DNA of 63,904 nucleotides, counting the filler, from Stramenopiles sp. TOSAG23-6 (lineage: Eukaryota): the NCBI GenBank assembly GCA_900128565.1. It is 4 parts of 4 records of this genome, joined end to end, with 100 filler letters (N's around TTAATTAATTAA, not from the genome) between each part and the next. Parts side by side here need not be neighbours in the genome. Positions count along the whole stretch, not along the records: positions 1 to 17,462 come from LT636079.1; 3 more parts are not named here. One strand, written 5' to 3'. Positions 1-26,263 of this stretch are shown here, piece after piece. Position 1 is the first letter of the stretch, and every line of letters begins with the position of its first letter. The notes beneath the pieces were generated by a model that did not search any database, had not been told where the DNA came from, and worked only from the letters and a program-made list of their open reading frames with translations. Both the position numbers and the translations under genes were made by a program.

Positions 1-32
1 CTGTATACTTTTGAAAATATTTTCTTCATCAT

Positions 33-3000
33 TCATGGTCCATCTTCACCTGCTTCAGCAATCGCACTCGCAGCTTCAAGTAGTTGAATTATTTCCGCAT
101 AACCATACTTTGAAGCAATAAGCAATGGGGTACTTCCATAATTATCAGCATGATTGACATCAGCACCCTTTTCAAGAAGTAGTTGAACTACTCCCTCAAA
201 ACCCTTTTGAGAAGAAATAAGCAATGGCGTAACTCCGTTTTGTTTAGGCTGATTGACATTTGCACCTTTACCAAGAAGTAATCGAACTACTCCAACATGA
301 CCAACCTCTGAAGCAATCCACAATGGGGTAATTCCATCCATTTGAGCAAGATTGACATCAGCACCATTAGCGAGAAGTAATTCAACAACTTCTGTATGAC
401 CCTTTTGAGAAGCAAACGTCAATGGTATCAACACATTATTATCCGGTATATGAACGTCTGCACCGCCTAGCAATAAAGCTTTCACAATTTCTATATAGCC
501 ATTTCCAGAAGCAAACATCAATGGTGTCCAATCATCATTAGCCTTTGCTTCAGTATTTGCATGGCGTTCCAATAAAGCATTCACAGTTGCTGTATGGCCC
601 TTTGAAGCAGCCCAGATTAATGATGTCCAGCCCTTATGATCCTTTGCTTCAATATCTGGACCACGTTTCAATAAAGCAATCACAGTATCTGTTTCGCCAT
701 TTACAGAAGCAGCCATCAATGATGTAGTCCCAATATTATCCTCTGCTTCAATATTTGCATCGCGATCCAATAAAGCATTCACAGTTTCTGTTTTTCCTTT
801 TTGAGAAGCAATCATCAACGACGTCCATCCAGCATCATTCTTTGCTTCAATTGCTACACGGCGTTCCAATAAAGCATTCACAATTGCTGTATTGCCCTTA
901 TCAGAAGCAGCCATCAATGCTGTCCAACCAGTATTAGAATTTGCATTAATATTTGCACCACGTTTCAATAAAGCTTTCACAGTTTCTGTTTGGCCACGAA
1001 AACAAGCAGTCATCAATGAAGTTACGCCATTATTATCCTTTGCTTCAATATTTGCACCTCGTTCCAATAAAGCAATTACAGTTGCTGTATGACCATTGTC
1101 GGAAGCAGCCATCAATGACGTCAAGTCATTATCATCTTTTGCCTCAACATTTGCACCGTGTTCCAATAAAGTAATCACAGTATCTGTATGACCATTTTGA
1201 GAAGCAACCATCAATAATGTGACATAATTAACATCATTAAAATAACTTTCATTTACATCAAATGCATTGGTTGATAACAATGTCTTCAAACGACCCTTTT
1301 GGCCCGTCGTAACATAGTCAAGGAGTTGTACAGATAATACTGTATTTTTGGCCTTCTGTCGCTCTATGGCATTCCGGACTCCTCTTGTTTCCAATGCAGT
1401 GGCATAGTCTAATGCAGTTTTACCATGGTGATCTTTTATATCAAGTTTTGCCCCATTTTGGAGCAGCTTATCCACCACCGCGCGATGGTTATCTTTTGCA
1501 GCAAGAATCAAAGCAGTTTCCATCGACTTGTTCTGAATGTCTACATTAGCATTTTGTCGTAGCAATTCATATACATCTCGTTTAATGCCACGAATTGCTG
1601 CTCTCATTAAAGCAGTGTTGCCGTCCACATCAACAGCATTAATATCTAAATCAACTTGCCCGGTCGCCTTGCTTTTATGGACAGAGGTATGCCCGCTTGT
1701 TTTACCCTGAAAATTATCCAATGCTGATTCATTTACACCAAGTTCAAGAGCAATTTTTCGAAAAATTTCTTTCTTATCTGCAGACAAAGTCGCATTCTTA
1801 CCATACTCAATAAGTGCTTTTGAAGCATACATAGTAAGTCCAACAGGAATACAAGTCATCATATATGAAATTGTATCAGCTTTTGATTCAAATGTGCCGT
1901 TCAAACCTGCCACACAGTACTCTACAGTCTTGATTCTACCTTGTAGGTCTGGAGAATTTCCTTCCATAGCTAAGACTTGCGCTTGTTGTAATAGATACAT
2001 CTTGTATGATTGATCGAGGTCGTCGCCACTTTGCACCACAAGGAGAACATTTCTCATTGCAGTTTGTCTCTTTTGTGTTGCAGTAAGTTGTTCAAGCTGT
2101 AATATTGTAGTTAGGTCACTAGATGGTTCTGGTGAAAGGATAGTAACAATATTTCGGTCAGAAACTGTGACATCATGTGTTTTTTCAGGTTCTAGTTCTG
2201 GTTCGGGTTCCACGTGTCCCATTGCTGCTAACGGCTTCAACCAATGATCAATTACATATTTACTGAGCTCCTTCTCCCATATTGGTTGCGTCTCAAATAT
2301 AAACAAACGAGTCTTTGTTCGAGAGATTGCAGTATACAGTATTCTCAACTCGTATTCCATTGCATCATAATATCCTTCCCGTCGTAATTTGTCTTCCGCT
2401 GATTCACTAGTAGTATTCAGTAAGTGCCTCCAACTATGTTTAATCTGCTCAACAGATGATGAAAAGAAATTTACGAGAATCACATTTTCATACTCCAGTC
2501 CTTTCGCATTGTGCAAACTCACAGTATTGATTTGTAGATTATCATTCGTGCCAGGCGATGATCCACGCAAGCTTGCATTACTTCCATTACGACTAAATAA
2601 TGGATCGTTCAAAAACACTTGACGTTCTGCCTCGGTACGAAAGATCAGTGTCGCATTTGGTGCATCACCCAAAGCTGTGCGCATGTCCTGTAATGTACGT
2701 GGATGCGCATAGCCCCATATTACAGGAGGTACACCTGTTACAATACCGGAATCTTCGACTGCATTTGTAAGTTTGAATTGTGTCCTCAGAAGATTCTTTA
2801 CATGATTACCCATTTCCACAACCCCACTACTATTGCGATAATTAGTTTTCAATGTCTTTGGTTCTTTTGTCTCAGCATCTAATTTTACACGAGAAGAATT
2901 CTCAGATTCAACAAAGTATAAAATATCCTTGACATCTTCAACACGAAACATTACACCAGGAACGAGCTGTTGCACAACATCCCCGGCAAGAGTAAGCCTA

Positions 3001-4664
3001 TTTGGATTATTCCCCACAAGACGTAAAAATAGTAAGATCATAGCCGATGTTACATCTTGCACTTCATCTACGTATATACGAGTGAACTCATCAGTAGCCG
3101 TGCCGAGATGTGACAACACACAGTCGCCAATGTCAAGCCAAATTGGTTTGTCCTTGCCACCAAGTGTATCAAATTCCTTACTTCGTTTGTATGATTCATA
3201 TACTTCATAGACCTTGAAAATGCTTTCCAATATTTCATCTGATTGAGTCGTATTTTTCTTTGCACTCTCTTTATACTCCTTAAGATTAAGTGCTCTTCCA
3301 TTCTTTGCTGCAAGCACAGATCCTTTGATAATATGTTGTATATGCGCCCACACAACACTTGCAGGTTCATTTAATGCCGACTCTTTGCTATTGACCTTTG
3401 CAAGACTTTTAAACTCATTAAAACGGCTGGCAAACATTTCTTCAGTCACAAATGTAGCTTCATCTGCGGCTCCAGTAACGGATTGATCGATTTGTGCAAA
3501 TATCATACGTTCAGCCATTCCCTCTTCCATCGGCATGAGTTCCTTTTTAGTCTCTCGGGTTAGGTTGAGACTTCTCGAAAAGTATATTTGTTTGGACGCT
3601 TGGCTAGGATCAAGGTGTGCAGGTAAAATATGTTCTGGTTCCGGTTCTAGTTCTGGTGCTAGCTCCAATTCTACTACTTCCGGCATTCTATCACTCTCAA
3701 TCATTAGTGATAAAAGAAGTACAGTTTTACCAGTACCAGGTGGTGCATTAAGAAACAGAAATTTGCCTGTGTTGTGGTCACGAATTTTCTCTTGCTCCTC
3801 CTTTAGCTCGAGAAGTGCACGATAATTGTCCTTTTTGGATTGTCTCTCAAAGTACATTGGGTTTCCATTCGGAACAAAATTATAGTGTCTCTGCGTTTGT
3901 GTAGCTGCTGCTGCTTGATCATCATCTGCAGCATCCATAATTCCTACAGAACCTGATAATATTGCCTGTTCCGTTAATTCAACATATTTTTGAGAGTCGT
4001 CCTTCGAGACAGATCCCGACGCTCTAGCAATATTCTTATGATGTGGTATAAATCTTGTGACATTTACGATGTTGTTGTCGTAAAGTTCAAACTCAAGCCT
4101 GGCACCACCATGCTTTTGCCCGATTCGAACTTTACGTATTCTTGCGTTCATACCATGATGACCTTGAACAGTGTTGGCATGACCACGGCTAAAATCTCCT
4201 TCACTTATATATTGTAAATGTTTAAAAAATGATTTCTTCGCTTCTTTTGTGGCTACATTGTTGATGAAGTCCAAGATGTCACCATTAACGCGAATCGTAT
4301 ATTGTGAAGTCGTGTTTTGTCTGTGTGACAACTCATTTTCATGCGGCAGCTCAATTTTTTTATCGAGAAAAACAGCGATTTCTTCTCCTTCAGGTTCTGG
4401 ATGATCAAGTGCAGATTCAGGTTCTGGATGGATAGGTTCCGGTTTAGTAACTTGATGTATGTCCTCTCTAGTGCTGGCATCAAGCCAGGCGTAAAAGTCA
4501 GTGGAACCTTGAGCTAATTGTAAGAGACTAATCCAGTCATCATTGTTCCCACTTGTTACCTGAGGTTTATGCCGTTTTTTCTTCTGTTTCTTCTTATTCC
4601 CCTTCTTGGATGCAATAACTATAATGCAGGTAACCATAAGAATCAGTATTATAATGGGTCTCAT
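33..4664 (-). CDS. TRANK1-like protein: N-terminal hydrophobic segment, RelE-like domain, UvrD-type SF1 helicase, long ankyrin array (mirror copy)
   Basis: Reverse complement of 12799..17430. Confidence 0.85.
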   Translation of the reverse strand: MRPIIILILMVTCIIVIASKKGNKKKQKKKRHKPQVTSGNNDDWISLLQLAQGSTDFYAWLDASTREDIHQVTKPEPIHPEPESALDHPEPEGEEIAVFLDKKIELPHENELSHRQNTTSQYTIRVNGDILDFINNVATKEAKKSFFKHLQYISEGDFSRGHANTVQGHHGMNARIRKVRIGQKHGGARLEFELYDNNIVNVTRFIPHHKNIARASGSVSKDDSQKYVELTEQAILSGSVGIMDAADDDQAAAATQTQRHYNFVPNGNPMYFERQSKKDNYRALLELKEEQEKIRDHNTGKFLFLNAPPGTGKTVLLLSLMIESDRMPEVVELELAPELEPEPEHILPAHLDPSQASKQIYFSRSLNLTRETKKELMPMEEGMAERMIFAQIDQSVTGAADEATFVTEEMFASRFNEFKSLAKVNSKESALNEPASVVWAHIQHIIKGSVLAAKNGRALNLKEYKESAKKNTTQSDEILESIFKVYEVYESYKRSKEFDTLGGKDKPIWLDIGDCVLSHLGTATDEFTRIYVDEVQDVTSAMILLFLRLVGNNPNRLTLAGDVVQQLVPGVMFRVEDVKDILYFVESENSSRVKLDAETKEPKTLKTNYRNSSGVVEMGNHVKNLLRTQFKLTNAVEDSGIVTGVPPVIWGYAHPRTLQDMRTALGDAPNATLIFRTEAERQVFLNDPLFSRNGSNASLRGSSPGTNDNLQINTVSLHNAKGLEYENVILVNFFSSSVEQIKHSWRHLLNTTSESAEDKLRREGYYDAMEYELRILYTAISRTKTRLFIFETQPIWEKELSKYVIDHWLKPLAAMGHVEPEPELEPEKTHDVTVSDRNIVTILSPEPSSDLTTILQLEQLTATQKRQTAMRNVLLVVQSGDDLDQSYKMYLLQQAQVLAMEGNSPDLQGRIKTVEYCVAGLNGTFESKADTISYMMTCIPVGLTMYASKALIEYGKNATLSADKKEIFRKIALELGVNESALDNFQGKTSGHTSVHKSKATGQVDLDINAVDVDGNTALMRAAIRGIKRDVYELLRQNANVDIQNKSMETALILAAKDNHRAVVDKLLQNGAKLDIKDHHGKTALDYATALETRGVRNAIERQKAKNTVLSVQLLDYVTTGQKGRLKTLLSTNAFDVNESYFNDVNYVTLLMVASQNGHTDTVITLLEHGANVEAKDDNDLTSLMAASDNGHTATVIALLERGANIEAKDNNGVTSLMTACFRGQTETVKALLKRGANINANSNTGWTALMAASDKGNTAIVNALLERRVAIEAKNDAGWTSLMIASQKGKTETVNALLDRDANIEAEDNIGTTSLMAASVNGETDTVIALLKRGPDIEAKDHKGWTSLIWAASKGHTATVNALLERHANTEAKANDDWTPLMFASGNGYIEIVKALLLGGADVHIPDNNVLIPLTFASQKGHTEVVELLLANGADVNLAQMDGITPLWIASEVGHVGVVRLLLGKGANVNQPKQNGVTPLLISSQKGFEGVVQLLLEKGADVNHADNYGSTPLLIASKYGYAEIIQLLEAASAIAEAGEDGP

Positions 4665-4833
4665 AATTGATATTTGGTAATGATATTTCCTTGAATGTTT
4701 CAGAACGAAGGACACGTACGCTGGGGGGCTTTGTGGTGGGTATGGTGCGCGCTGACTCGATCGATGTGGTATAGGAGTAAAACACGTATCTCGAAAAATC
4801 ACAAATATTGTTCTTTACTTATGTATTAAAATT

Positions 4834-6257
4834 TTATTTTTTTTCATTAAGCAAACTCTTCAATTCTTCACTGAAAAAATCCTCTGGTGACTCTCCCTCA
4901 TCGTCTTTTATTGTTGGATCTGCGCCAGCTTGGATTAGTAAAAGTGCAACTTGACTATGCTCACAGCAGCAAGCCATGTTGGTGAAAAAATATGCCACAC
5001 AAAAAAATCGTTAGGTATGGAATTTCGTACTAAAAAAAAAAAAAATCATCATGAAAACGTACATACTCAGTGGTGTGACACCAGTAGAATCCTTTGTATC
5101 AATTGTAGCCCCTCTTCGCAAACACAATTTTACAAGATTTAAATGCATTGTGAAAGAATACTTCAACAAATTAATTTTTTTTTCGTAAGTACAAAATTTG
5201 GTACAAAAAAATAAAAAAAAATCATTAGGTACAAAATATCGTACCAAAAAAAAATGAAAAACATGATGAAAACGTACATGACCTCGGTCACAAGACCAAT
5301 GAAGAACTGTCCCGCCATCGCCATCTTTTGCGTTTATATGTATTTTGGAAAAATATTTGAAATTTTTTTCGTTAGGTACAAAATTTCGTATGAAAAAACA
5401 ATTTCGAATTTGAAAAAAAATAAAACATACATCTGCGCCTTCATCAAGTAACTTTTCTACGGTAGATAAATCTCCATTACTTGCATAATAAAAAATATCC
5501 TTTTTAGAGTTATGATTTTCTTGTGTACTCGGATCAAATTGTAACGTACTTTGAACAGGACCCATTAGCCCCCCTTGTTTCTTTGTTTGAGTAGGGTTAG
5601 GGTTAGTGCTGGGTGGGACTTTTACGTTGGATAAATTATCTTTCATTAGCCCTTGTTTCTTTGTTTGAGTAGGGTTAGGGTTAGTACTGGGTGGGACTTT
5701 TACGTTGGATAAATTATCTTTCATATTATTATTTACAGCTAGTCTTTCGATTTGTTTTATATATAGTTCCATGTATTTTGGAAAAATATTTCAAAAAAAA
5801 AACGTTAGGTACGAAATTTCGTACGGAAAAAAAACTCGAAATTGAAAAAAAATAAAACATACATTGCTACATTTTGTGGCATATTTCCAAGAGCGAACCA
5901 GGCGTCAAACTTTGCGCGTGCACGAAATTCGAATAGTGCAGGTCGTTCGCCTGTACACTTTCCGTATTTAGACTGTTTGAAGAATGCATATAGCTGCAGT
6001 TGCTCTTCTGTCGAAATTGATGATATCAATCCTGCGTGTTTCACAGCAGCATCAAATCTGCTCTTAAGAAGATTGTCTTTCTTTTCATTTGATACTGCGG
6101 CATCTTTCGTTGTTTTGATCGCTTGGCGTTTTTTCGCTATTTTATGACGAAAATAATTCCAGAATACATACGATATAATAACACTAAATGTTGATGCTGC
6201 TACTGACTTACATGATAGCCACTCCAATACTATGTGTAAACGATCTTTGAGTAACAT
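4834..6257 (-). CDS. Acyl-CoA-binding domain + ankyrin repeat protein, ACBD6-like, 5 exons (mirror copy)
   Basis: Mirror of 11206..12629. Introns at 5771-5862, 5338-5430, 5143-5277, 4976-5062. Confidence 0.85.
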
Positions 6258-6700
6258 GACTGAATGCTTTTTCGTAAAATTTGTATGTGCTGGTATATCT
6301 AGTTAATATCGTCAAGGTTGGCTTTTCTTCAGCTCAGCGATCAGAATAGTATAGCCGCACACACAAGCTAACAACTTATATTTGAAAGGATGAACGACTG
6401 ATTATTTACCTATATATTCGTTGCGCGGCAATATTCGTTTTTAAATTTTTCAAAAGTAGAATTTCGATTTTTATCGATTTTTGGCGGTCACAAAATTTCT
6501 CCTTGACAGACGGAAGGAAGGAGGAACGACAGGAAATTAAGTATACAAGTAAAACTTTGCTAAAACTTTGTTCCCTTTGTTTTGGGCATTTATAGGATCA
6601 ATCAAAGAAAATTGTTCAAAGGACAAACCCTTTCACATTAACTCCTGTCAAGGATTCGTTTGAGAAGAAAGTAGGAGATAGAACAAATCCTATCGGTAGG

Positions 6701-7459
6701 ATGCCTGGAGCTCTGGAAATGTTTGAAAGGGAGCCTAGAGCAAAAAAAGAGGACACTGAAAATCCAATGCCTACTGGAGGTATGAATCTAGGTTTGAATG
6801 CAGGATTTCAATTAGGGGAGAATTCTGTAATAGGTAAAAGAACATGTATTGTAGTTGATATGCGTAATGGAGCGGCTGCACCAGCTACCTCAAACAAAAG
6901 TACAAAAAATTCAAAGTCAAAAAAAACTAATTCAGCAAAAGTTCCAGGTTGCTCGGATAAGGTTGAAGTAGGTTATTTTTTTCTTCTTTTGTCAGCGTTG
7001 CTTGTTTATATTGCAATCGGTATAATTGCAGGAAAACCAGGAAATGGTGATTTAAAGAAAAGTGTTCACTGTTGTGCTCCTTTTCACATAGTATTTGGGG
7101 CAATAGGTTGGTGGTTCCCGCCTCTTTTTCTTTTCTTTGTGTTTTATCAAATTGCCGATCATTATGGATTTTGGTGGAAAGAGCCTCTCTATCAATTTCA
7201 CGATGAACAAGAGAGTTGGATGGAAACTTTTACTGATGTATTAGAATATTTTGTTGGCCTTTTTCTTGTTGAAGTATGTCGATGGGTTCGTCCTTTACGT
7301 TTTAGTTGTATGAAACTTTGTTGGCTTCATTGGAGACGGACAGGTCGTTGTACTGACGCTCCTCCATTTTGTATTCACAACTGTTGCACATCTTGTGTTG
7401 ATCGTTTTGAAGATGTTCTTGAGGAACATACTGTTATTAAAGTGAAAGAAGTATCATAG
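6701..7459 (+). CDS. Hypothetical multi-pass membrane protein, intronless
   Basis: 252-aa ATG-started ORF with several hydrophobic segments and a Cys-rich C-terminus. Confidence 0.7.
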   Translation: MPGALEMFEREPRAKKEDTENPMPTGGMNLGLNAGFQLGENSVIGKRTCIVVDMRNGAAAPATSNKSTKNSKSKKTNSAKVPGCSDKVEVGYFFLLLSALLVYIAIGIIAGKPGNGDLKKSVHCCAPFHIVFGAIGWWFPPLFLFFVFYQIADHYGFWWKEPLYQFHDEQESWMETFTDVLEYFVGLFLVEVCRWVRPLRFSCMKLCWLHWRRTGRCTDAPPFCIHNCCTSCVDRFEDVLEEHTVIKVKEVS

Positions 7460-7616
7460 CAGTTGAAATGTGAAACTAATGTAATTGTTCCAAAAATGAG
7501 TGAGAAGTGTTGTTTACGTAGATTTAAATTTTTGGGAGTCAGTGCCACGTGTGACCAAATATTAATCCAGCTACTACAGGCCGGTACTCTACACTACAGT
7601 AGAAAAAAATAGAATT

Positions 7617-8731
7617 ATGACAAAATCTACTAGCACTTTTCAATGGTTAGCTGCTGCATCTGCTACTCTTACTATTGCTACAAGTATTTTCTATTTTTGG
7701 CAACGTAGAATTGCTAAAAAATATAAAAAGACGGAGGATATAGTTAATGGCGAGGCAATCTTTGTAAAAGAACGAATGACAATGATAATAACAACTTCAC
7801 CTACCCAGTCAAACCCCTCAACATCTCTGATTGAAGAACTGTTTCATTCATTTTCCTATGTACCTGAATTAAAGCACTGCCATAAAATTATTGTTTGTGA
7901 TGGCATAAAAATTGCTCACGAAGGTCGCAAGTCTAAATATCGTAGTGGAATCATTACAACCAAAGCTCTCGCGGCATACAACTTATACTTGAAAAAAATT
8001 CGTCAGCTCGCTACACGTGAGGAAGGTCAGTGGACAAATGTTCAGATTTTGGAACTAAATAATAGGAATGGTTTTGGTTTTGCTGTTAAAGAGGCACTAG
8101 AAAAGGTAAAAACTGACTATGTCATGGTCTGTCAACATGTACGTTTTCATCATTTTGATTTCAATTTTTTTTTTTGGTATGAAATTTTGTACCTAACGAT
8201 TTTTTTTTGACATTTTTTTTTTTCACACAACATGACCGACTATTTGGACAAAAATGGCACGGTTTGCCAATGACCCTTCGTGCTCTAGAAGCATTTCACG
8301 ACGAAGTTAGTTTTATTGGTCTGCCAACTAATTCTACACGTGATTATATTCATCGTATGCGTGTATGTTTTAATTTCAATTTTTTACATATTTTTTTTTT
8401 CGTACGAAATTTTGTACCTAACAAATTTTAGTTTTTTTTGAAATATTTTTTCACAATACATAGTCGATTTCATATCGATCTCTCAAAAAAGTGGAAGCAC
8501 TTTAAAGGTGGAGTAAAATTATTACCAATGCTCGTTTGGTTAGATAGTACTCATATAGCATCCGTTCAGTACTATAGAGATTTCGTGTTTAATAAAGATC
8601 GAAAATTGGTCTCAAAAGGTGGTTTTATGTATGTTTTCAATTTTTTTTTTTTTTTTTTTTAGTATGAAATTTTGTACATAAAAAAAAAAAAATTTAAAAT
8701 TATACGTAACAAAAAAAACGAATTCAAAAAA
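7617..8731 (+). CDS. Putative GT-A-fold glycosyltransferase-like protein, 3'-truncated at the fold-back axis
   Basis: N-terminal TM segment, then IITTSP, IIVCDG, GFGFAV and VMVCQHD motifs. Removing introns 8139-8233 and 8363-8461 (both GT..AT) gives a continuous frame. A third intron starts at 8629. Confidence 0.65.
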
Positions 8732-9846
8732 TTTTTTGAATTCGTTTTTTTTGTTACGTATAATTTTAAATTTTTTTTTTTTTATGTACAAAATTTCATA
8801 CTAAAAAAAAAAAAAAAAAAAATTGAAAACATACATAAAACCACCTTTTGAGACCAATTTTCGATCTTTATTAAACACGAAATCTCTATAGTACTGAACG
8901 GATGCTATATGAGTACTATCTAACCAAACGAGCATTGGTAATAATTTTACTCCACCTTTAAAGTGCTTCCACTTTTTTGAGAGATCGATATGAAATCGAC
9001 TATGTATTGTGAAAAAATATTTCAAAAAAAACTAAAATTTGTTAGGTACAAAATTTCGTACGAAAAAAAAAATATGTAAAAAATTGAAATTAAAACATAC
9101 ACGCATACGATGAATATAATCACGTGTAGAATTAGTTGGCAGACCAATAAAACTAACTTCGTCGTGAAATGCTTCTAGAGCACGAAGGGTCATTGGCAAA
9201 CCGTGCCATTTTTGTCCAAATAGTCGGTCATGTTGTGTGAAAAAAAAAAATGTCAAAAAAAAATCGTTAGGTACAAAATTTCATACCAAAAAAAAAAATT
9301 GAAATCAAAATGATGAAAACGTACATGTTGACAGACCATGACATAGTCAGTTTTTACCTTTTCTAGTGCCTCTTTAACAGCAAAACCAAAACCATTCCTA
9401 TTATTTAGTTCCAAAATCTGAACATTTGTCCACTGACCTTCCTCACGTGTAGCGAGCTGACGAATTTTTTTCAAGTATAAGTTGTATGCCGCGAGAGCTT
9501 TGGTTGTAATGATTCCACTACGATATTTAGACTTGCGACCTTCGTGAGCAATTTTTATGCCATCACAAACAATAATTTTATGGCAGTGCTTTAATTCAGG
9601 TACATAGGAAAATGAATGAAACAGTTCTTCAATCAGAGATGTTGAGGGGTTTGACTGGGTAGGTGAAGTTGTTATTATCATTGTCATTCGTTCTTTTACA
9701 AAGATTGCCTCGCCATTAACTATATCCTCCGTCTTTTTATATTTTTTAGCAATTCTACGTTGCCAAAAATAGAAAATACTTGTAGCAATAGTAAGAGTAG
9801 CAGATGCAGCAGCTAACCATTGAAAAGTGCTAGTAGATTTTGTCAT
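8732..9846 (-). CDS. Mirror copy of the putative glycosyltransferase-like gene
   Basis: Reverse complement of 7617..8731. Confidence 0.65.
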
Positions 9847-10003
9847 AATTCTATTTTTTTCTACTGTAGTGTAGAGTACCGGCCTGTAGTAGCTGGATTA
9901 ATATTTGGTCACACGTGGCACTGACTCCCAAAAATTTAAATCTACGTAAACAACACTTCTCACTCATTTTTGGAACAATTACATTAGTTTCACATTTCAA
10001 CTG

Positions 10004-10762
10004 CTATGATACTTCTTTCACTTTAATAACAGTATGTTCCTCAAGAACATCTTCAAAACGATCAACACAAGATGTGCAACAGTTGTGAATACAAAATGGA
10101 GGAGCGTCAGTACAACGACCTGTCCGTCTCCAATGAAGCCAACAAAGTTTCATACAACTAAAACGTAAAGGACGAACCCATCGACATACTTCAACAAGAA
10201 AAAGGCCAACAAAATATTCTAATACATCAGTAAAAGTTTCCATCCAACTCTCTTGTTCATCGTGAAATTGATAGAGAGGCTCTTTCCACCAAAATCCATA
10301 ATGATCGGCAATTTGATAAAACACAAAGAAAAGAAAAAGAGGCGGGAACCACCAACCTATTGCCCCAAATACTATGTGAAAAGGAGCACAACAGTGAACA
10401 CTTTTCTTTAAATCACCATTTCCTGGTTTTCCTGCAATTATACCGATTGCAATATAAACAAGCAACGCTGACAAAAGAAGAAAAAAATAACCTACTTCAA
10501 CCTTATCCGAGCAACCTGGAACTTTTGCTGAATTAGTTTTTTTTGACTTTGAATTTTTTGTACTTTTGTTTGAGGTAGCTGGTGCAGCCGCTCCATTACG
10601 CATATCAACTACAATACATGTTCTTTTACCTATTACAGAATTCTCCCCTAATTGAAATCCTGCATTCAAACCTAGATTCATACCTCCAGTAGGCATTGGA
10701 TTTTCAGTGTCCTCTTTTTTTGCTCTAGGCTCCCTTTCAAACATTTCCAGAGCTCCAGGCAT
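10004..10762 (-). CDS. Mirror copy of the hypothetical membrane protein
   Basis: Reverse complement of 6701..7459. Confidence 0.7.
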   Translation of the reverse strand: MPGALEMFEREPRAKKEDTENPMPTGGMNLGLNAGFQLGENSVIGKRTCIVVDMRNGAAAPATSNKSTKNSKSKKTNSAKVPGCSDKVEVGYFFLLLSALLVYIAIGIIAGKPGNGDLKKSVHCCAPFHIVFGAIGWWFPPLFLFFVFYQIADHYGFWWKEPLYQFHDEQESWMETFTDVLEYFVGLFLVEVCRWVRPLRFSCMKLCWLHWRRTGRCTDAPPFCIHNCCTSCVDRFEDVLEEHTVIKVKEVS

Positions 10763-11205
10763 CCTACCGATAGGATTTGTTCTATCTCCTACTTTCTTCT
10801 CAAACGAATCCTTGACAGGAGTTAATGTGAAAGGGTTTGTCCTTTGAACAATTTTCTTTGATTGATCCTATAAATGCCCAAAACAAAGGGAACAAAGTTT
10901 TAGCAAAGTTTTACTTGTATACTTAATTTCCTGTCGTTCCTCCTTCCTTCCGTCTGTCAAGGAGAAATTTTGTGACCGCCAAAAATCGATAAAAATCGAA
11001 ATTCTACTTTTGAAAAATTTAAAAACGAATATTGCCGCGCAACGAATATATAGGTAAATAATCAGTCGTTCATCCTTTCAAATATAAGTTGTTAGCTTGT
11101 GTGTGCGGCTATACTATTCTGATCGCTGAGCTGAAGAAAAGCCAACCTTGACGATATTAACTAGATATACCAGCACATACAAATTTTACGAAAAAGCATT
11201 CAGTC

Positions 11206-12629
11206 ATGTTACTCAAAGATCGTTTACACATAGTATTGGAGTGGCTATCATGTAAGTCAGTAGCAGCATCAACATTTAGTGTTATTATATCGTATGTATT
11301 CTGGAATTATTTTCGTCATAAAATAGCGAAAAAACGCCAAGCGATCAAAACAACGAAAGATGCCGCAGTATCAAATGAAAAGAAAGACAATCTTCTTAAG
11401 AGCAGATTTGATGCTGCTGTGAAACACGCAGGATTGATATCATCAATTTCGACAGAAGAGCAACTGCAGCTATATGCATTCTTCAAACAGTCTAAATACG
11501 GAAAGTGTACAGGCGAACGACCTGCACTATTCGAATTTCGTGCACGCGCAAAGTTTGACGCCTGGTTCGCTCTTGGAAATATGCCACAAAATGTAGCAAT
11601 GTATGTTTTATTTTTTTTCAATTTCGAGTTTTTTTTCCGTACGAAATTTCGTACCTAACGTTTTTTTTTTGAAATATTTTTCCAAAATACATGGAACTAT
11701 ATATAAAACAAATCGAAAGACTAGCTGTAAATAATAATATGAAAGATAATTTATCCAACGTAAAAGTCCCACCCAGTACTAACCCTAACCCTACTCAAAC
11801 AAAGAAACAAGGGCTAATGAAAGATAATTTATCCAACGTAAAAGTCCCACCCAGCACTAACCCTAACCCTACTCAAACAAAGAAACAAGGGGGGCTAATG
11901 GGTCCTGTTCAAAGTACGTTACAATTTGATCCGAGTACACAAGAAAATCATAACTCTAAAAAGGATATTTTTTATTATGCAAGTAATGGAGATTTATCTA
12001 CCGTAGAAAAGTTACTTGATGAAGGCGCAGATGTATGTTTTATTTTTTTTCAAATTCGAAATTGTTTTTTCATACGAAATTTTGTACCTAACGAAAAAAA
12101 TTTCAAATATTTTTCCAAAATACATATAAACGCAAAAGATGGCGATGGCGGGACAGTTCTTCATTGGTCTTGTGACCGAGGTCATGTACGTTTTCATCAT
12201 GTTTTTCATTTTTTTTTGGTACGATATTTTGTACCTAATGATTTTTTTTTATTTTTTTGTACCAAATTTTGTACTTACGAAAAAAAAATTAATTTGTTGA
12301 AGTATTCTTTCACAATGCATTTAAATCTTGTAAAATTGTGTTTGCGAAGAGGGGCTACAATTGATACAAAGGATTCTACTGGTGTCACACCACTGAGTAT
12401 GTACGTTTTCATGATGATTTTTTTTTTTTTTAGTACGAAATTCCATACCTAACGATTTTTTTGTGTGGCATATTTTTTCACCAACATGGCTTGCTGCTGT
12501 GAGCATAGTCAAGTTGCACTTTTACTAATCCAAGCTGGCGCAGATCCAACAATAAAAGACGATGAGGGAGAGTCACCAGAGGATTTTTTCAGTGAAGAAT
12601 TGAAGAGTTTGCTTAATGAAAAAAAATAA
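11206..12629 (+). CDS. Acyl-CoA-binding domain + ankyrin repeat protein, ACBD6-like, 5 exons
   Basis: ACBP motif LQLYAFFKQ...RAKFDAW...AM|ELYI. Ankyrin repeats GAD|INAKDGDGGTVLHWSCDRGH|LNLVKL...TPLSM|ACCCEH are restored by removing introns 11601-11692, 12033-12125, 12186-12320 and 12401-12487. Confidence 0.88.
11601..11692 (+). mobile_element. Introner-like intron, GT..AT (representative family member)
   Basis: AT|GTATGTTTT...CCGTACGAAATTTCGTACCTAACG...GAAATATTTTTCCAAAATACAT|G. Removal restores the ACBP segment VAMELYI. Confidence 0.85.
12033..12125 (+). mobile_element. Introner-like intron, GT..AT
   Basis: Same family motifs. Removal restores ankyrin GADINAKD. Confidence 0.85.
12186..12320 (+). 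mobile_element. Introner-like intron with duplicated core, GT..AT
   Basis: Two GTAC..ATTTTGTACYTA cores. Removal restores RGHLNLVKL. Confidence 0.8.
12401..12487 (+). mobile_element. Introner-like intron, GT..AT
   Basis: Removal restores TPLSMACC. Confidence 0.8.
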
Positions 12630-12798
12630 AATTTTAATACATAAGTAAAGAACAATATTTGTGATTTTTCGAGATACGTGTTTTACTCCTATACCACATC
12701 GATCGAGTCAGCGCGCACCATACCCACCACAAAGCCCCCCAGCGTACGTGTCCTTCGTTCTGAAACATTCAAGGAAATATCATTACCAAATATCAATT

Positions 12799-15700
12799 AT
12801 GAGACCCATTATAATACTGATTCTTATGGTTACCTGCATTATAGTTATTGCATCCAAGAAGGGGAATAAGAAGAAACAGAAGAAAAAACGGCATAAACCT
12901 CAGGTAACAAGTGGGAACAATGATGACTGGATTAGTCTCTTACAATTAGCTCAAGGTTCCACTGACTTTTACGCCTGGCTTGATGCCAGCACTAGAGAGG
13001 ACATACATCAAGTTACTAAACCGGAACCTATCCATCCAGAACCTGAATCTGCACTTGATCATCCAGAACCTGAAGGAGAAGAAATCGCTGTTTTTCTCGA
13101 TAAAAAAATTGAGCTGCCGCATGAAAATGAGTTGTCACACAGACAAAACACGACTTCACAATATACGATTCGCGTTAATGGTGACATCTTGGACTTCATC
13201 AACAATGTAGCCACAAAAGAAGCGAAGAAATCATTTTTTAAACATTTACAATATATAAGTGAAGGAGATTTTAGCCGTGGTCATGCCAACACTGTTCAAG
13301 GTCATCATGGTATGAACGCAAGAATACGTAAAGTTCGAATCGGGCAAAAGCATGGTGGTGCCAGGCTTGAGTTTGAACTTTACGACAACAACATCGTAAA
13401 TGTCACAAGATTTATACCACATCATAAGAATATTGCTAGAGCGTCGGGATCTGTCTCGAAGGACGACTCTCAAAAATATGTTGAATTAACGGAACAGGCA
13501 ATATTATCAGGTTCTGTAGGAATTATGGATGCTGCAGATGATGATCAAGCAGCAGCAGCTACACAAACGCAGAGACACTATAATTTTGTTCCGAATGGAA
13601 ACCCAATGTACTTTGAGAGACAATCCAAAAAGGACAATTATCGTGCACTTCTCGAGCTAAAGGAGGAGCAAGAGAAAATTCGTGACCACAACACAGGCAA
13701 ATTTCTGTTTCTTAATGCACCACCTGGTACTGGTAAAACTGTACTTCTTTTATCACTAATGATTGAGAGTGATAGAATGCCGGAAGTAGTAGAATTGGAG
13801 CTAGCACCAGAACTAGAACCGGAACCAGAACATATTTTACCTGCACACCTTGATCCTAGCCAAGCGTCCAAACAAATATACTTTTCGAGAAGTCTCAACC
13901 TAACCCGAGAGACTAAAAAGGAACTCATGCCGATGGAAGAGGGAATGGCTGAACGTATGATATTTGCACAAATCGATCAATCCGTTACTGGAGCCGCAGA
14001 TGAAGCTACATTTGTGACTGAAGAAATGTTTGCCAGCCGTTTTAATGAGTTTAAAAGTCTTGCAAAGGTCAATAGCAAAGAGTCGGCATTAAATGAACCT
14101 GCAAGTGTTGTGTGGGCGCATATACAACATATTATCAAAGGATCTGTGCTTGCAGCAAAGAATGGAAGAGCACTTAATCTTAAGGAGTATAAAGAGAGTG
14201 CAAAGAAAAATACGACTCAATCAGATGAAATATTGGAAAGCATTTTCAAGGTCTATGAAGTATATGAATCATACAAACGAAGTAAGGAATTTGATACACT
14301 TGGTGGCAAGGACAAACCAATTTGGCTTGACATTGGCGACTGTGTGTTGTCACATCTCGGCACGGCTACTGATGAGTTCACTCGTATATACGTAGATGAA
14401 GTGCAAGATGTAACATCGGCTATGATCTTACTATTTTTACGTCTTGTGGGGAATAATCCAAATAGGCTTACTCTTGCCGGGGATGTTGTGCAACAGCTCG
14501 TTCCTGGTGTAATGTTTCGTGTTGAAGATGTCAAGGATATTTTATACTTTGTTGAATCTGAGAATTCTTCTCGTGTAAAATTAGATGCTGAGACAAAAGA
14601 ACCAAAGACATTGAAAACTAATTATCGCAATAGTAGTGGGGTTGTGGAAATGGGTAATCATGTAAAGAATCTTCTGAGGACACAATTCAAACTTACAAAT
14701 GCAGTCGAAGATTCCGGTATTGTAACAGGTGTACCTCCTGTAATATGGGGCTATGCGCATCCACGTACATTACAGGACATGCGCACAGCTTTGGGTGATG
14801 CACCAAATGCGACACTGATCTTTCGTACCGAGGCAGAACGTCAAGTGTTTTTGAACGATCCATTATTTAGTCGTAATGGAAGTAATGCAAGCTTGCGTGG
14901 ATCATCGCCTGGCACGAATGATAATCTACAAATCAATACTGTGAGTTTGCACAATGCGAAAGGACTGGAGTATGAAAATGTGATTCTCGTAAATTTCTTT
15001 TCATCATCTGTTGAGCAGATTAAACATAGTTGGAGGCACTTACTGAATACTACTAGTGAATCAGCGGAAGACAAATTACGACGGGAAGGATATTATGATG
15101 CAATGGAATACGAGTTGAGAATACTGTATACTGCAATCTCTCGAACAAAGACTCGTTTGTTTATATTTGAGACGCAACCAATATGGGAGAAGGAGCTCAG
15201 TAAATATGTAATTGATCATTGGTTGAAGCCGTTAGCAGCAATGGGACACGTGGAACCCGAACCAGAACTAGAACCTGAAAAAACACATGATGTCACAGTT
15301 TCTGACCGAAATATTGTTACTATCCTTTCACCAGAACCATCTAGTGACCTAACTACAATATTACAGCTTGAACAACTTACTGCAACACAAAAGAGACAAA
15401 CTGCAATGAGAAATGTTCTCCTTGTGGTGCAAAGTGGCGACGACCTCGATCAATCATACAAGATGTATCTATTACAACAAGCGCAAGTCTTAGCTATGGA
15501 AGGAAATTCTCCAGACCTACAAGGTAGAATCAAGACTGTAGAGTACTGTGTGGCAGGTTTGAACGGCACATTTGAATCAAAAGCTGATACAATTTCATAT
15601 ATGATGACTTGTATTCCTGTTGGACTTACTATGTATGCTTCAAAAGCACTTATTGAGTATGGTAAGAATGCGACTTTGTCTGCAGATAAGAAAGAAATTT

Positions 15701-17430
15701 TTCGAAAAATTGCTCTTGAACTTGGTGTAAATGAATCAGCATTGGATAATTTTCAGGGTAAAACAAGCGGGCATACCTCTGTCCATAAAAGCAAGGCGAC
15801 CGGGCAAGTTGATTTAGATATTAATGCTGTTGATGTGGACGGCAACACTGCTTTAATGAGAGCAGCAATTCGTGGCATTAAACGAGATGTATATGAATTG
15901 CTACGACAAAATGCTAATGTAGACATTCAGAACAAGTCGATGGAAACTGCTTTGATTCTTGCTGCAAAAGATAACCATCGCGCGGTGGTGGATAAGCTGC
16001 TCCAAAATGGGGCAAAACTTGATATAAAAGATCACCATGGTAAAACTGCATTAGACTATGCCACTGCATTGGAAACAAGAGGAGTCCGGAATGCCATAGA
16101 GCGACAGAAGGCCAAAAATACAGTATTATCTGTACAACTCCTTGACTATGTTACGACGGGCCAAAAGGGTCGTTTGAAGACATTGTTATCAACCAATGCA
16201 TTTGATGTAAATGAAAGTTATTTTAATGATGTTAATTATGTCACATTATTGATGGTTGCTTCTCAAAATGGTCATACAGATACTGTGATTACTTTATTGG
16301 AACACGGTGCAAATGTTGAGGCAAAAGATGATAATGACTTGACGTCATTGATGGCTGCTTCCGACAATGGTCATACAGCAACTGTAATTGCTTTATTGGA
16401 ACGAGGTGCAAATATTGAAGCAAAGGATAATAATGGCGTAACTTCATTGATGACTGCTTGTTTTCGTGGCCAAACAGAAACTGTGAAAGCTTTATTGAAA
16501 CGTGGTGCAAATATTAATGCAAATTCTAATACTGGTTGGACAGCATTGATGGCTGCTTCTGATAAGGGCAATACAGCAATTGTGAATGCTTTATTGGAAC
16601 GCCGTGTAGCAATTGAAGCAAAGAATGATGCTGGATGGACGTCGTTGATGATTGCTTCTCAAAAAGGAAAAACAGAAACTGTGAATGCTTTATTGGATCG
16701 CGATGCAAATATTGAAGCAGAGGATAATATTGGGACTACATCATTGATGGCTGCTTCTGTAAATGGCGAAACAGATACTGTGATTGCTTTATTGAAACGT
16801 GGTCCAGATATTGAAGCAAAGGATCATAAGGGCTGGACATCATTAATCTGGGCTGCTTCAAAGGGCCATACAGCAACTGTGAATGCTTTATTGGAACGCC
16901 ATGCAAATACTGAAGCAAAGGCTAATGATGATTGGACACCATTGATGTTTGCTTCTGGAAATGGCTATATAGAAATTGTGAAAGCTTTATTGCTAGGCGG
17001 TGCAGACGTTCATATACCGGATAATAATGTGTTGATACCATTGACGTTTGCTTCTCAAAAGGGTCATACAGAAGTTGTTGAATTACTTCTCGCTAATGGT
17101 GCTGATGTCAATCTTGCTCAAATGGATGGAATTACCCCATTGTGGATTGCTTCAGAGGTTGGTCATGTTGGAGTAGTTCGATTACTTCTTGGTAAAGGTG
17201 CAAATGTCAATCAGCCTAAACAAAACGGAGTTACGCCATTGCTTATTTCTTCTCAAAAGGGTTTTGAGGGAGTAGTTCAACTACTTCTTGAAAAGGGTGC
17301 TGATGTCAATCATGCTGATAATTATGGAAGTACCCCATTGCTTATTGCTTCAAAGTATGGTTATGCGGAAATAATTCAACTACTTGAAGCTGCGAGTGCG
17401 ATTGCTGAAGCAGGTGAAGATGGACCATGA
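12799..17430 (+). CDS. TRANK1-like protein: N-terminal hydrophobic segment, RelE-like domain, UvrD-type SF1 helicase, long ankyrin array; intronless
   Basis: SF1 motifs APPGTGKT, IYVDEVQD, AGDVVQQ, LKTNYRNS, HNAKGLEY, LYTAISRTK. More than 15 ankyrin repeats. The first ATG is at 12799 (MRPIIILILMV); the ORF track starts earlier at a GTG. Confidence 0.85.
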   Translation: MRPIIILILMVTCIIVIASKKGNKKKQKKKRHKPQVTSGNNDDWISLLQLAQGSTDFYAWLDASTREDIHQVTKPEPIHPEPESALDHPEPEGEEIAVFLDKKIELPHENELSHRQNTTSQYTIRVNGDILDFINNVATKEAKKSFFKHLQYISEGDFSRGHANTVQGHHGMNARIRKVRIGQKHGGARLEFELYDNNIVNVTRFIPHHKNIARASGSVSKDDSQKYVELTEQAILSGSVGIMDAADDDQAAAATQTQRHYNFVPNGNPMYFERQSKKDNYRALLELKEEQEKIRDHNTGKFLFLNAPPGTGKTVLLLSLMIESDRMPEVVELELAPELEPEPEHILPAHLDPSQASKQIYFSRSLNLTRETKKELMPMEEGMAERMIFAQIDQSVTGAADEATFVTEEMFASRFNEFKSLAKVNSKESALNEPASVVWAHIQHIIKGSVLAAKNGRALNLKEYKESAKKNTTQSDEILESIFKVYEVYESYKRSKEFDTLGGKDKPIWLDIGDCVLSHLGTATDEFTRIYVDEVQDVTSAMILLFLRLVGNNPNRLTLAGDVVQQLVPGVMFRVEDVKDILYFVESENSSRVKLDAETKEPKTLKTNYRNSSGVVEMGNHVKNLLRTQFKLTNAVEDSGIVTGVPPVIWGYAHPRTLQDMRTALGDAPNATLIFRTEAERQVFLNDPLFSRNGSNASLRGSSPGTNDNLQINTVSLHNAKGLEYENVILVNFFSSSVEQIKHSWRHLLNTTSESAEDKLRREGYYDAMEYELRILYTAISRTKTRLFIFETQPIWEKELSKYVIDHWLKPLAAMGHVEPEPELEPEKTHDVTVSDRNIVTILSPEPSSDLTTILQLEQLTATQKRQTAMRNVLLVVQSGDDLDQSYKMYLLQQAQVLAMEGNSPDLQGRIKTVEYCVAGLNGTFESKADTISYMMTCIPVGLTMYASKALIEYGKNATLSADKKEIFRKIALELGVNESALDNFQGKTSGHTSVHKSKATGQVDLDINAVDVDGNTALMRAAIRGIKRDVYELLRQNANVDIQNKSMETALILAAKDNHRAVVDKLLQNGAKLDIKDHHGKTALDYATALETRGVRNAIERQKAKNTVLSVQLLDYVTTGQKGRLKTLLSTNAFDVNESYFNDVNYVTLLMVASQNGHTDTVITLLEHGANVEAKDDNDLTSLMAASDNGHTATVIALLERGANIEAKDNNGVTSLMTACFRGQTETVKALLKRGANINANSNTGWTALMAASDKGNTAIVNALLERRVAIEAKNDAGWTSLMIASQKGKTETVNALLDRDANIEAEDNIGTTSLMAASVNGETDTVIALLKRGPDIEAKDHKGWTSLIWAASKGHTATVNALLERHANTEAKANDDWTPLMFASGNGYIEIVKALLLGGADVHIPDNNVLIPLTFASQKGHTEVVELLLANGADVNLAQMDGITPLWIASEVGHVGVVRLLLGKGANVNQPKQNGVTPLLISSQKGFEGVVQLLLEKGADVNHADNYGSTPLLIASKYGYAEIIQLLEAASAIAEAGEDGP

Positions 17431-17462
17431 ATGATGAAGAAAATATTTTCAAAAGTATACAG

Positions 17463-17562
17463 NNNNNNNNNNNNNNNNNNNNNNNNNNNNNNNNNNNNNN
17501 NNNNNNTTAATTAATTAANNNNNNNNNNNNNNNNNNNNNNNNNNNNNNNNNNNNNNNNNNNN
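17463..17562. other. Artificial contig linker (N44-TTAATTAATTAA-N44)
   Basis: Six-frame stop spacer, repeated at 34971-35070 and 52369-52468. Confidence 0.98.
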
Positions 17563-18460
17563 CTCTTGTGTGGAATCACCGCTCGGTAAATCCATATTTC
17601 TGTCTAGAATAAATGATGGAATTTGTGACTGCTGTGATGGAAGTGATGAAAAATCTACCATTGGGTGCATAAATGTGTGTAGTATCGAGCAATCTGAGTT
17701 GAATGCGAAGTATTCGGGACGTCTTTCTGGATGTCAAGCAAAGCTCAAACTATTAGAATTAACTCACTCCAAGCAAGTTTTCTATGAAAAGACACAGAGA
17801 GAGACAATAGAAAAGCAATCGGAATTCAATAAACAGCTGAAATTGTTAAATTTGGAATTAAATAATCATAGAGCAATGCTGCAAGAGAGGAAACAACTAC
17901 ATGAAGAATTTCAGCTTAAAGGATCAGCTTATTTAGGTTTAGTACGTTGCTTGAAAAATAGTTCTCCAGATGAAACTTCCCACTGTTCTTTTTCTAATAT
18001 AGAAATATTGAATGTTATTAATCATATGGTTGACACAAATCCGACTGAAGTCAAACGTGTATCCGAAACTTTACTAAACTCGAATTCGATGAGGAGAATT
18101 TCAACTGATAATAAAAATAAAGAAGATTGCTCTTGTAGTAGTATTGATTATGACACCTCATTTAATCTACAATTAATTTGGAGACAATTGTCCCAAAAAC
18201 AAGAAATTCCGTCAATTGAATACATAGAAAATCAAAAAAGAGAAATTGAGGATTCAAAAAATAAATTACAACGGATTCAACGGATGTCAGAGAAAGAGTA
18301 TCTTTTAGATTTTGGTCCTGATCGTATTTGGTGGCCGTTACTCGGTAAATGCGTTGAAAAAAAAGAATATAGCGTATGTTTGATGAAATACGCAAAACAA
18401 GGTAATGAAAGTTTAGGTAGATTTTCTGGCTGGGTCGATCCAACTGAGTCAATACCCAAT
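17563..18460 (+). CDS. Glucosidase II beta subunit (PRKCSH)-like, partial
   Basis: SRINDGICDCCDGSDE, a coiled coil, then the start of an MRH domain (FGPD..W..L.GKC...YSVC...SLGRFSGW). 5'-truncated. The expected end of the MRH domain is missing after intron 18461-18552. Confidence 0.8.
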
Positions 18461-22610: not shown

Positions 22611-24433
22611 AGTGCGGCGATATTTCTACCTCCACCGTTCCAATATTTCAATCGTCCATCAAAGACATTTCCTTCCCGTGGACCTCGAGGATCTGTCTGA
22701 GAATCAAATATACCACTAGAAGCCATCGCTGGGGCACCAGGTACTGATTTTAATCCCACAGGTCTGTGTAAATCATCTCCTCCTGGTACTCCTCCTAGAC
22801 AATGAACGTTACTCCTGTACACTAAAAAAATATGCAAATCTGAAATTTGTTGGGTAAAAAATTTTCTAAAAAAAAAAAAAAAAATTTTTGAAATGAGAGA
22901 AAATATACTTTTGAATTTTTGCAGCAACGTCAAGCTTATTCTGTGATGTATATGATCCATCCAAGCTAACTCTTTTACCTCCATCAGATGCATAGCCATA
23001 TGTATTTTGGAAAAATATTTCAAAAAAACCCGTTAGGTACAAAATTTCGTACGAAAAAAAAATCGAAATTGAACAAAAATTAAACATACATGATCCGTTG
23101 ACATCTCCTTGAGCTTCGTGTAGATGAGAGAATACTGTGTCGTAAAAAAATATTTTTTTTGTTTTTTTCGTAAAACACAATTCGTTAGGTACAAAATTTT
23201 CTTAGTAAAAAACACATCTTTCAAATTCACGATGAAAACTTACCTCTACTCTTTTGTGGATCATCCCCAGCAACCATCATTTTACTAGGCTTGGACCACT
23301 CGTCAGTGACAACCCCGTGAGGGACAAGGTAGCTTCCTACGTTTACGTTTTGTGAAAAATATTTTTTTTTTTTTTTGGATAATAAAAAAAAAGTCGTTAG
23401 GTACAAAATTTTCTATGAAAAAAAAAAAAAAAATGAATGAATGATGAAAACATTCAAGTTTGGTATTCCAAATTCAGACTGTTTTTTCGGGGGAGCTCCA
23501 GGTTTCGGATCAAAATCGAATTCTTTTGTCCCTGCAGCACTTGTCGCAGTCAATCCATTAGGCCCTAACTCTAGATTCCCTCTTGGTTCGGTTCGTCTCG
23601 TTTGCATTTCAATATATCGAGATTCTGAAGATGCTTTTAGATGACAAGTAAAGTGACCGTTTTGCTGAGTTATATATTGTGAAAAAAAAAAAATGTGAAA
23701 AAAAATGTTAGGTACAAAATTTCGTACAAAAAAAAATTAAAAATTAAAAAAATTAAAAATGAATGGTGAAAACGAACAAGGCACTTTTGCTATTCTTTGC
23801 TTTGAATGCTCCTTCTTTCAGTGATAAGCGCGGCACGTCTGGTGTTCCGGTCCATTCAAAATTAATAGTACTGAAATTAGTTTTCCCAGCAAATTTGCCA
23901 CCTCCTTGATTTTTTTCCAATTGAGGAACACCGCCAAAACGAATAGAACTTTTCATATTTTTGTGTTGAACTTTCTTTGGTGCAGTCTTATCCTCTGGTC
24001 CCGGTTTGTATTCAAATGATAGGTTTGTTCGCAAGGCTGGATTTTGTGAATATTCTGGTTGAACGCGCTTCGGTGGCATCTCATACAACGCCTGTGTTTC
24101 ACTTCGAACGACGTTTTGCTGCCCTTCGAAGGCATCGGCAACACCTCGAGAAGTGGTGAAGGAAACTTCTGTTGAAGGTTGAGCTTGTTGTGAAGTTGAC
24201 TGAAATGTCTGAGTCTGTGTATTCAGTGACATATTTTGCCGCCCTCGTTGAGATAAATATTCGTGACTCTTCCTTACTGCTTCCTGTCGTCTATCTTCTT
24301 CTTGTTGAGATTTTCGTTGTTGTGATTTTTCGTACGCTGTTTTGTCACGAGATGAAGTAGTTCCTTTAGAAGTTGGTGAAATGCTACCAAAGTAATTTTC
24401 CATCCCAGAGTATGTTTCAATTGTACCACTCAT
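22577..24433 (-). CDS. Hypothetical protein, 6 exons
   Basis: One continuous frame after removing family introns 23672-23777 (GT..AT), 23345-23455 (GA..GT), 23135-23243 (GT..AG), 23000-23089 (GT..AT) and 22815-22908 (GT..AG). Confidence 0.7.
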
Positions 24434-26202: not shown

Positions 26203-26263
26203 ATTAAAAAAAAACGAAATAAAAAAAATAGTAATTACACAATTTTACTTAGGAAGTTGTAGA

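Follow-up and report, generated by a model that had tools for sequence, protein, structure and literature searches.

A palindrome beside the branch site in a family of introns from Stramenopiles sp. TOSAG23-6 that mostly end without AG

The intron family and its host genes

We analysed a stretch of 63,904 nucleotides from Stramenopiles sp. TOSAG23-6 (assembly GCA_900128565.1), made of four parts joined end to end and called here the window, and concentrated on a palindrome that recurs in its introns. At 11639-11654, within an intron of an acyl-CoA-binding/ankyrin gene, lies GTACGAAATTTCGTAC, a perfect 16-base palindrome that runs directly into CTAAC (11655-11659), as the original prediction had described. 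When up to two mismatches are allowed, the window contains 43 matches to the 16-mer; 0.02 would be expected, and no shuffle out of 100 gave so many. Each match lies in the same sense-strand setting: an exon, usually with AT at its end, then GTATGT or GTACGT, a T-rich stretch, the palindrome, CTAAC and a second T-rich stretch, after which these introns finish in ...AAAATACAT or ...CACAATACAT, without AG. They are about 90-105 nucleotides (nt) long and abundant, in sense orientation, across unrelated genes, which include those for acyl-CoA-binding/ankyrin, adenylosuccinate lyase, ABC-F, acyl-CoA dehydrogenase-like and AAA-type proteins. The parts of the intron at 11639, and the other family members on which the argument draws, are the following.

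11601-11692, plus strand: family intron of 92 nt in the acyl-CoA-binding/ankyrin gene, GTATGT...AAATACAT; its exons join NVAM to ELYIKQIERL in an open frame
11601-11606, plus strand: 5' splice site GTATGT; GT is found in 19/19 introns with set boundaries
11639-11646, plus strand: palindrome 5' arm, GTACGAAA; older copies do not maintain it
11647-11654, plus strand: 3' arm of the palindrome, TTTCGTAC, maintained; position 12 is T in most copies
11651-11659, plus strand: putative extended branch-site block GTAC-CTAAC, the unit actually conserved
11687-11692, plus strand: intron 3' end ATACAT, without AG; its ATAC is complementary to the GTAT that opens the intron
27179-27278, minus strand: family intron of the adenylosuccinate lyase gene with a perfect palindrome at 27227-27242; skipped by a polyA RNA contig
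23672-23777, minus strand: family intron with a T12 variant of the core at 23712-23727; skipped by a polyA RNA contig
26903-27007, minus strand: family intron with a fully decayed 5' arm, AATTTTTTTTTTGTAC-CTAAC, ending in ...CAATACTT; placed by colinearity with 7t24_A
26545-26725, minus strand: family intron of 181 nt, A1/T12 core at 26673-26688, GTTTGT...CAATACAT; placed by colinearity with 7t24_A
30576-30679, minus strand: diverged family intron, core ATAGTAAATTTTGTAC-CTAAC, with an AG end at the usual 3' position; open frame, boundary inferred
32786-32882, plus strand: family intron with an A1 variant of the core at 32825-32840; no open frame across it, so its place may be the start codon or the 5' untranslated region

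Two further perfect copies had been proposed. The one placed at 27223-27243 is indeed a perfect palindrome, with coordinates that were off by one: it lies on the minus strand at 27227-27242, and its CTAAC is read on that strand from 27226 down to 27222. The other, at 32825-32840, reads ATACGAAATTTCGTAC and is one change away from a perfect palindrome. The perfect form is found in 2/42 cores, and the commonest form is GTACGAAATTTTGTAC (7/42).

These core counts depend on the make-up of the window. Positions 1-17462 are their own reverse complement at 100% (mirror centre 8731/8732), as are positions 35071-52368 at 99.95% (mirror centre 43719/43720), and both contigs are probably amplification or assembly artefacts or chimeras. 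Each feature inside them is therefore counted twice, and about one third of the 43 palindrome matches are duplicates; the exact copy at 5809, for example, is the mirror image of the one at 11639. Because of the mirrored halves, we confined the analysis to 8732-43719 and 52369-63904, a non-mirrored part of about 46 kb from which all curated core counts were taken. Contigs are separated by spacers of the form N44-TTAATTAATTAA-N44. We curated 42 independent cores (31 distinct), scoring tandem repeats within one intron once and adding the core at 43259 through an anchor search with the anchor in the 3' arm. A family profile built from 14 clear copies and searched with nhmmer gave 65 matches over the whole window, and 47 of these lie in the non-mirrored part.

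The stretch is present in small DNA runs and in metagenomes and metatranscriptomes from seawater, which makes the organism a marine eukaryote. A metagenome scan with an 18-mer from the intron 3' end returned at least 118 loci and recovered no family member among the matches listed; 2/118 of these had a 9-mer-like match upstream, both within unrelated sequence. An Rfam scan of the window gave 0 matches, no U2 gene lies in the window, and a literature search for the motif string gave primers only.

Intron boundaries and removal from RNA

Boundaries were set for 19 introns. All 19 begin with GT (GTATGT in nine, GTACGT in six, other forms in four), whereas the last two bases are AT in 16, AG in two and TT in one; the AG that defines the 3' end of U2-type GT-AG introns is thus found in 2/19. 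The core had been said to be better conserved than the splice dinucleotides, which is correct for the 3' end and incorrect for the 5' GT. The reading frame is open over the junction in 18 of the 19 introns. Exact CTAAC is present in 36/42 cores (hand count from the alignment), and among the introns listed the block UUUUGUAC-CUAAC, in RNA letters, stands 33-45 nt (once 123 nt) before the intron end. The intron at 30384 was left out of the boundary set, since its boundaries clash with the reading frame and it contains many Ns. Intron 30335-30451 has eight single Ns between 30343 and 30378 and is the sole listed intron in which the frame is broken by GT..AT boundaries; it would be kept by GT..AC or TG..AT, and the cause is probably sequence quality.

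The ends of the introns have features of their own. Pairing is possible between the four bases that open the intron and bases -6 to -3, and with the exon AT included (AT + GTAT against ATAC + AT) the pairing reaches only 4-6 bp; at least four of the six positions are pairable in 16/19 introns, a figure that comes without a chance control. The dinucleotide before the intron is repeated at the intron end in 14/19 (AT in 13, TT in one). Since AT is self-complementary, only the TT case is informative on target duplication as opposed to an inverted repeat. Taken together, the end pairing and the repeated dinucleotide may be traces of a small DNA transposon that duplicates 2 bp of its target.

Some loci depart from the simple arrangement. 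Introns 37960-38178, 40671-40855 and 12186-12320 carry the core and part of the T-rich flank two or three times in tandem (cores at 37993/38045/38118, 40710/40757 and 12219/12259). The first of them contains three identical GTACGTAATTTTGTAC-CTAAC units, with a 5' arm that is the same as the GTACGT at the intron's own 5' splice site. On the minus strand, 52588-52815 holds two family elements back to back, with a ...CACAATACAT end directly before a GTACAT... start; the upstream element is without the branch motif, and the pair may be excised as one intron. At 63009-63029 an antisense core lies within a plus-strand intron-like stretch (62926-63160), which suggests a nested insertion.

We then compared DNA and RNA contigs over a sub-range of the window. 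Most contig joints tie different family copies (e.g. 23028 to 26938) and were discarded as repeat-driven. In run X9, a polyA metatranscriptome, 23671 is joined to 23778 in one contig, which skips exactly 106 nt, and 27178 to 27279 in another, which skips exactly 100 nt. On the gene strand the first of these introns reads GTTCGT...CACAATATAT between exons CCTT and AACTC, and its RNA junction fits GT..AT or TG..TA only; AT..AC is excluded. In the independent seawater DNA run X3, contigs run from the exon into the element. The summed depth of family sequence over three stretches (22749-23111, 26379-26741 and 29283-29645) was about 6,000 to 18,000 in DNA run X3, about 500 to 2,800 in metatranscriptomes X6 and X7, which were not polyA-selected, and at most 1.2 in polyA run X9. 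These depths indicate that the family has very many copies, by implication thousands, and is depleted from mature mRNA.

The adenylosuccinate lyase gene (26264-28212, minus strand) offers a check at the protein level. It encodes an enzyme of the bacterial PurB type and has four family introns. The best solved relatives of the protein are bacterial, ahead of the trypanosomatid and Plasmodium enzymes, and a protein atlas search with an exon of the gene returned bacterial-type lyase clusters only. Its exons align to PDB chain 7t24_A as follows.

Exon 1: residues up to 288
Exon 2: residues 291-345; the alignment omits the first query residue, which would fall at 290
Exon 3: residues 347-404
Exon 4: residues 407-435; the alignment omits the first query residue, which would fall at 406

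Three family introns each split one codon, and the exons show neither insertion nor deletion relative to 7t24_A. Members of the family are introns that are removed from RNA with the reading frame restored. We also considered U12-type AT-AC introns, as a shift of two bases gives AT..AC in most copies. This assignment was excluded by the RNA junction of 23672-23777 and by the protein colinearity of 26903-27007.

Unequal conservation of the two arms

The two arms of the palindrome differ strongly in conservation. Relative to the consensus, the 42 cores carry 71 changes in the 5' arm, 25 in the 3' arm (19 without position 12) and 10 in CTAAC. Core positions 1-4 have 48 changes against 8 in their partners, positions 13-16. 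Conservation reaches at least 90% at A15, at C16 and at each base of CTAAC except the last. T14 is invariant and G13 hardly varies; pairing of the 5' splice site (GUAYG) with the 3' arm was also considered, and these two positions offer almost no variation by which to judge it. The raw counts are less telling than the trend with age and the many independent states of the 5' arm. Changes in the 5' arm rise as the similarity of the flanks to the nearest relative falls (Spearman -0.56, p 4e-4), and those in the 3' arm show no trend (Spearman -0.08). In the 14 most diverged copies, 34% of positions are changed in the 5' arm against 7% in the 3' arm and 7% in CTAAC, and these 14 copies hold 13 distinct 5' arms. 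Positions 13-21 (GTACCTAAC) are exact in 10/14 of them and positions 1-6 in 1/14, compared with 12/22 for positions 1-6 in copies whose flanks remain close to other copies. One variant with a non-palindromic 5' arm, ATAGTAAA, is present in two different genes (30624 and 33996). The T at position 12 of most copies was considered as a product of CpG deamination, an explanation we rejected: CpG observed/expected is 0.97, and with CpG not depleted, deamination does not account for the common T.

These patterns indicate that the conserved unit is UUUUGUAC-CUAAC, a U run followed by GUAC-CUAAC, which by its sequence would be a long branch site. The earlier suggestion of an extended U2 or branch-site signal is thus supported for no more than the 3' half of the palindrome. 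The universal U2 motif is GUAGUA, and the yeast-type branch consensus UACUAAC pairs with it. As in the yeast-type site, the introns described here have a CUAAC core after UAC, strong conservation and a 5' site of the GUAUGU type. They differ from it by an extra C (GUAC-C-UAAC), by conservation that extends to a further G and an upstream U run, and by the absence of AG downstream. UAC-C-UAAC would pair with U2 like the yeast-type site, with one extra C bulged. Splicing would then use only the 3' half of the palindrome, which would form the upstream portion of a branch site of unusual length. The 5' half would be a mirror image derived from the founder element that drifts like neutral sequence after insertion.

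An RNA stem presenting the branch A had been put forward as the function of the palindrome. We scored a stem of 6 bp over the 42 cores and found no pair changed on both sides (0/6). All six pairs are still possible (Watson-Crick or G-U) in 14/42 cores, and paired cells amount to 67.7% compared with 70.0% in column shuffles, 490/500 of which were at least equal. Hairpin energies at 37 C are -5.4 kcal/mol for the perfect palindrome, -3.3 for the commonest variant, -1.2 and -0.8 for two other common variants and 0 for a diverged one. Whole-intron folds are not better than shuffles (z -1.1 to -1.6). With no covariation, pairing not above that of shuffles and weak energies, the palindrome is not a conserved RNA stem. 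The original prediction held that its reading would be refuted by substitutions random with respect to pairing and by decay of the core at the rate of the flanking poly-T. The former is what we observe; for the 3' half, decay at the rate of the surroundings does not hold.

The palindrome had also been thought to replace the AG as the signal that specifies the 3' end, and the introns with a decayed 5' arm speak against this. Intron 26903-27007 has all eight positions of the 5' arm changed, ends in ...CTT and leaves an AG 4 nt downstream unused; its excision is exact by colinearity with 7t24_A. As it is removed precisely despite the fully decayed arm, the palindrome does not replace AG. Likewise, intron 12401-12487 has a broken stem, ends in AT and leaves the period of the ankyrin repeats intact. 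In intron 30576-30679, AG stands exactly where other copies have AT. The finding of AT, TT or AG at one same position implies that the 3' cut is made at a fixed place, two bases past ...AYAC, whatever these bases are. The possible hairpin would be weak and dispensable both for splicing and for the choice of the 3' end.

Two coding features of the window lie apart from the family. There is a long poly-asparagine tract in one open reading frame (ORF) at 38013-38843, and a tandem coding repeat, MKDNLSNVKVPPSTNPNPTQTKKQG, at 11740-11880, whose DNA includes two telomere-like CCCTAA units.

Origin of the palindrome and relation to known introns

The explanation we favour, and consider reasonably probable, is that the palindrome is the central segment of a mobile-element-like intron ('introner') of about 90-105 nt, in which the 3' half is functional and the 5' half is a relic of the founder. 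The palindrome itself was most likely inherited from the founder element. Our preferred guess for the mirror half is that it had a role in mobility at the DNA level in the founder, or else that it is the relic of two abutting element ends.

Several points weigh against this explanation. Among introns chosen by their termini only (16 distinct, 13 with the branch 9-mer), three are without the 9-mer, and one, 40138-40251, has no CTAAC whatsoever. The ancestral state at position 12 cannot be firmly named. The evidence from RNA junctions concerns two introns only, both with an intact stem, and the hairpin is somewhat firmer than computed if the organism, being marine, lives well below 37 C, as it probably does. 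The copies are related and were treated as independent, which makes the p-values too small. Both the profile search and the 3'-arm anchor of the core at 43259 favour copies that keep the conserved block. Finally, a hand count of distinct letters per column gives 15 for the 5' arm and 11 for the 3' arm, a difference that is not decisive alone.

The termini of intron 40138-40251 are typical of the family, and where other copies have the palindrome and CTAAC it has a long run of T; an upstream CTGAT could be its branch site.

One alternative is compatible with the favoured explanation, and we regard it as possible, if tentative: the palindrome would work at the DNA level, as a symmetric site or small cruciform for the mobilising machinery, so that only young copies need both arms. 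Both arms are indeed intact mainly in young copies, the ends of the introns are transposon-like in their pairing and repeated dinucleotides, and the core is duplicated in tandem within three introns. However, no transposase-like ORF was seen when the ORFs of the window were read by eye, with no domain scan made; the non-palindromic ATAGTAAA in two genes could point to a master copy that was able to spread although it had no palindrome; and 13 of the 14 direct repeats are the self-complementary AT, which makes target duplication inseparable from an inverted repeat. A broader proposal goes a step further and is, in our judgement, rather doubtful. It makes the whole palindrome a mobility signal in DNA and its 3' half, in RNA, part of a branch site of 9-13 nt that allows U2-type removal without AG, the cut being made two bases past the right end, be they AT, TT or AG, and set by position or by pairing of the ends rather than by the dinucleotide.

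It is unlikely that an RNA hairpin presents the branch adenosine, or aids the splicing of new copies and later becomes dispensable. The perfect palindrome and its commonest variants do form a 6-bp stem, alone and inside full introns, and both RNA-verified introns keep it intact. AG ends are also found in about 3-4 of 11 copies with a broken stem compared with 1 of about 18 with at least five of six pairs, in a hand tally in which several ends are unverified. Against this stand the lack of compensatory changes, the pairing no better than shuffles, the low energies (0 to -5.4 kcal/mol, and z -1.1 to -1.6 for whole introns) and the stem-less introns 26903-27007 and 12401-12487, which lie in conserved genes and are cut precisely at non-AG ends. 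More improbable still is that the elements are not spliceosomal introns and are removed by DNA elimination, as in ciliates, or by the nonconventional pathway of euglenids, with the palindrome as recognition site. Such pathways would fit 3' ends other than AG in 17/19 introns, pairable ends and short direct repeats at the junctions. Yet the invariant GT, the GTAYGT consensus and CTAAC at the expected distance are hallmarks of U2-type introns, and the introns are present in DNA contigs of source-like and independent seawater runs and absent from polyA RNA contigs.

The favoured explanation places the family near the introners, transposon-derived introns described from Micromonas, Aureococcus and many aquatic eukaryotes (PMC9860276, PMC12130899, PMC11282704, PMC4540971). 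In the portions of this literature at hand, introners occur as many near-identical short introns in unrelated genes whose excision restores the frame, have terminal inverted repeats and short direct repeats at their junctions, and keep one splice site inside the element with the other at the duplicated target (PMC9860276, PMC12130899, PMC11282704). The similar copies in unrelated genes and the restored frame recur here, and the pairable ends and repeated dinucleotides may correspond to the repeats and to the splice-site arrangement of introners. In contrast to the co-opted AG of introners as these portions describe it, the family has AT, TT or AG at a fixed 3' position, and it has in addition an almost invariant branch block of 9 nt and a central palindrome. 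According to the accessible part of one introner survey, annotation and familiar splice sites (GT/GC/GA/AT and AG/AC) were required (PMC12130899), and a family of this kind in an unannotated assembly would therefore be missed.

Other families share some of these traits, as far as the available parts of their descriptions go. The tunicate Fritillaria borealis has non-canonical introns derived from miniature inverted-repeat transposable elements (PMC11282704, PMC13326754). Like the present family they are transposon-like and recently gained, and they have inverted repeats, to which the pairable ends here may correspond; their last two bases are AC or AT, and a U2-type spliceosome presumably removes them (PMC11282704, PMC13326754). 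In those accounts they mostly start with AG (AG-AC, AG-AT) and have no strong shared internal motif, whereas the introns analysed here begin with an invariant GT and keep a branch motif like that of yeast. Amoebophrya has introner elements with inverted and direct repeats (PMC7789003), and nonconventional introns are described from euglenids and hemistasiid diplonemids; introns of this sort have also been predicted from single-cell assemblies without RNA data (PMC12621601). Like them, the family has ends that can pair and could bring the splice sites together, what may be short direct repeats over the boundaries and borders other than GT-AG, and belongs to a marine protist (PMC7789003, PMC12621601). 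Unlike those introns, which in the same sections are without conserved 5' and branch signals, it has both in strong form, and only its 3' dinucleotide is irregular. The sister stwintrons of Hypoxylaceae are also a proliferating intron family with internal symmetry (PMC8469720). Judged by the title and the start of the abstract, they are nested twin introns with U2-type excision (PMC8469720).

In the literature searched, supplements excluded, no palindrome adjoining a branch site, no GUACCUAAC branch consensus and no GT-AT families are described. We consequently rate the family as new within transposon-derived introns; a single-cell assembly study of marine protists might bear on it.

Bursts of intron gain are at present best explained by transposon-derived introns, and the family bears on how the spliceosome handles elements without a proper 3' splice site. 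It can be regarded as a natural mutagenesis series, in which copies of different age show that selection keeps the GT, the U run with GUAC-CUAAC and the position of the 3' cut, and gives up the palindrome's mirror half together with the last two bases. If confirmed genome-wide, the family would make AG-independent choice of the 3' splice site tractable beside otherwise yeast-like signals, and its unusually long branch-site consensus would predict a matching change in the U2 snRNA or in a branch-binding protein.

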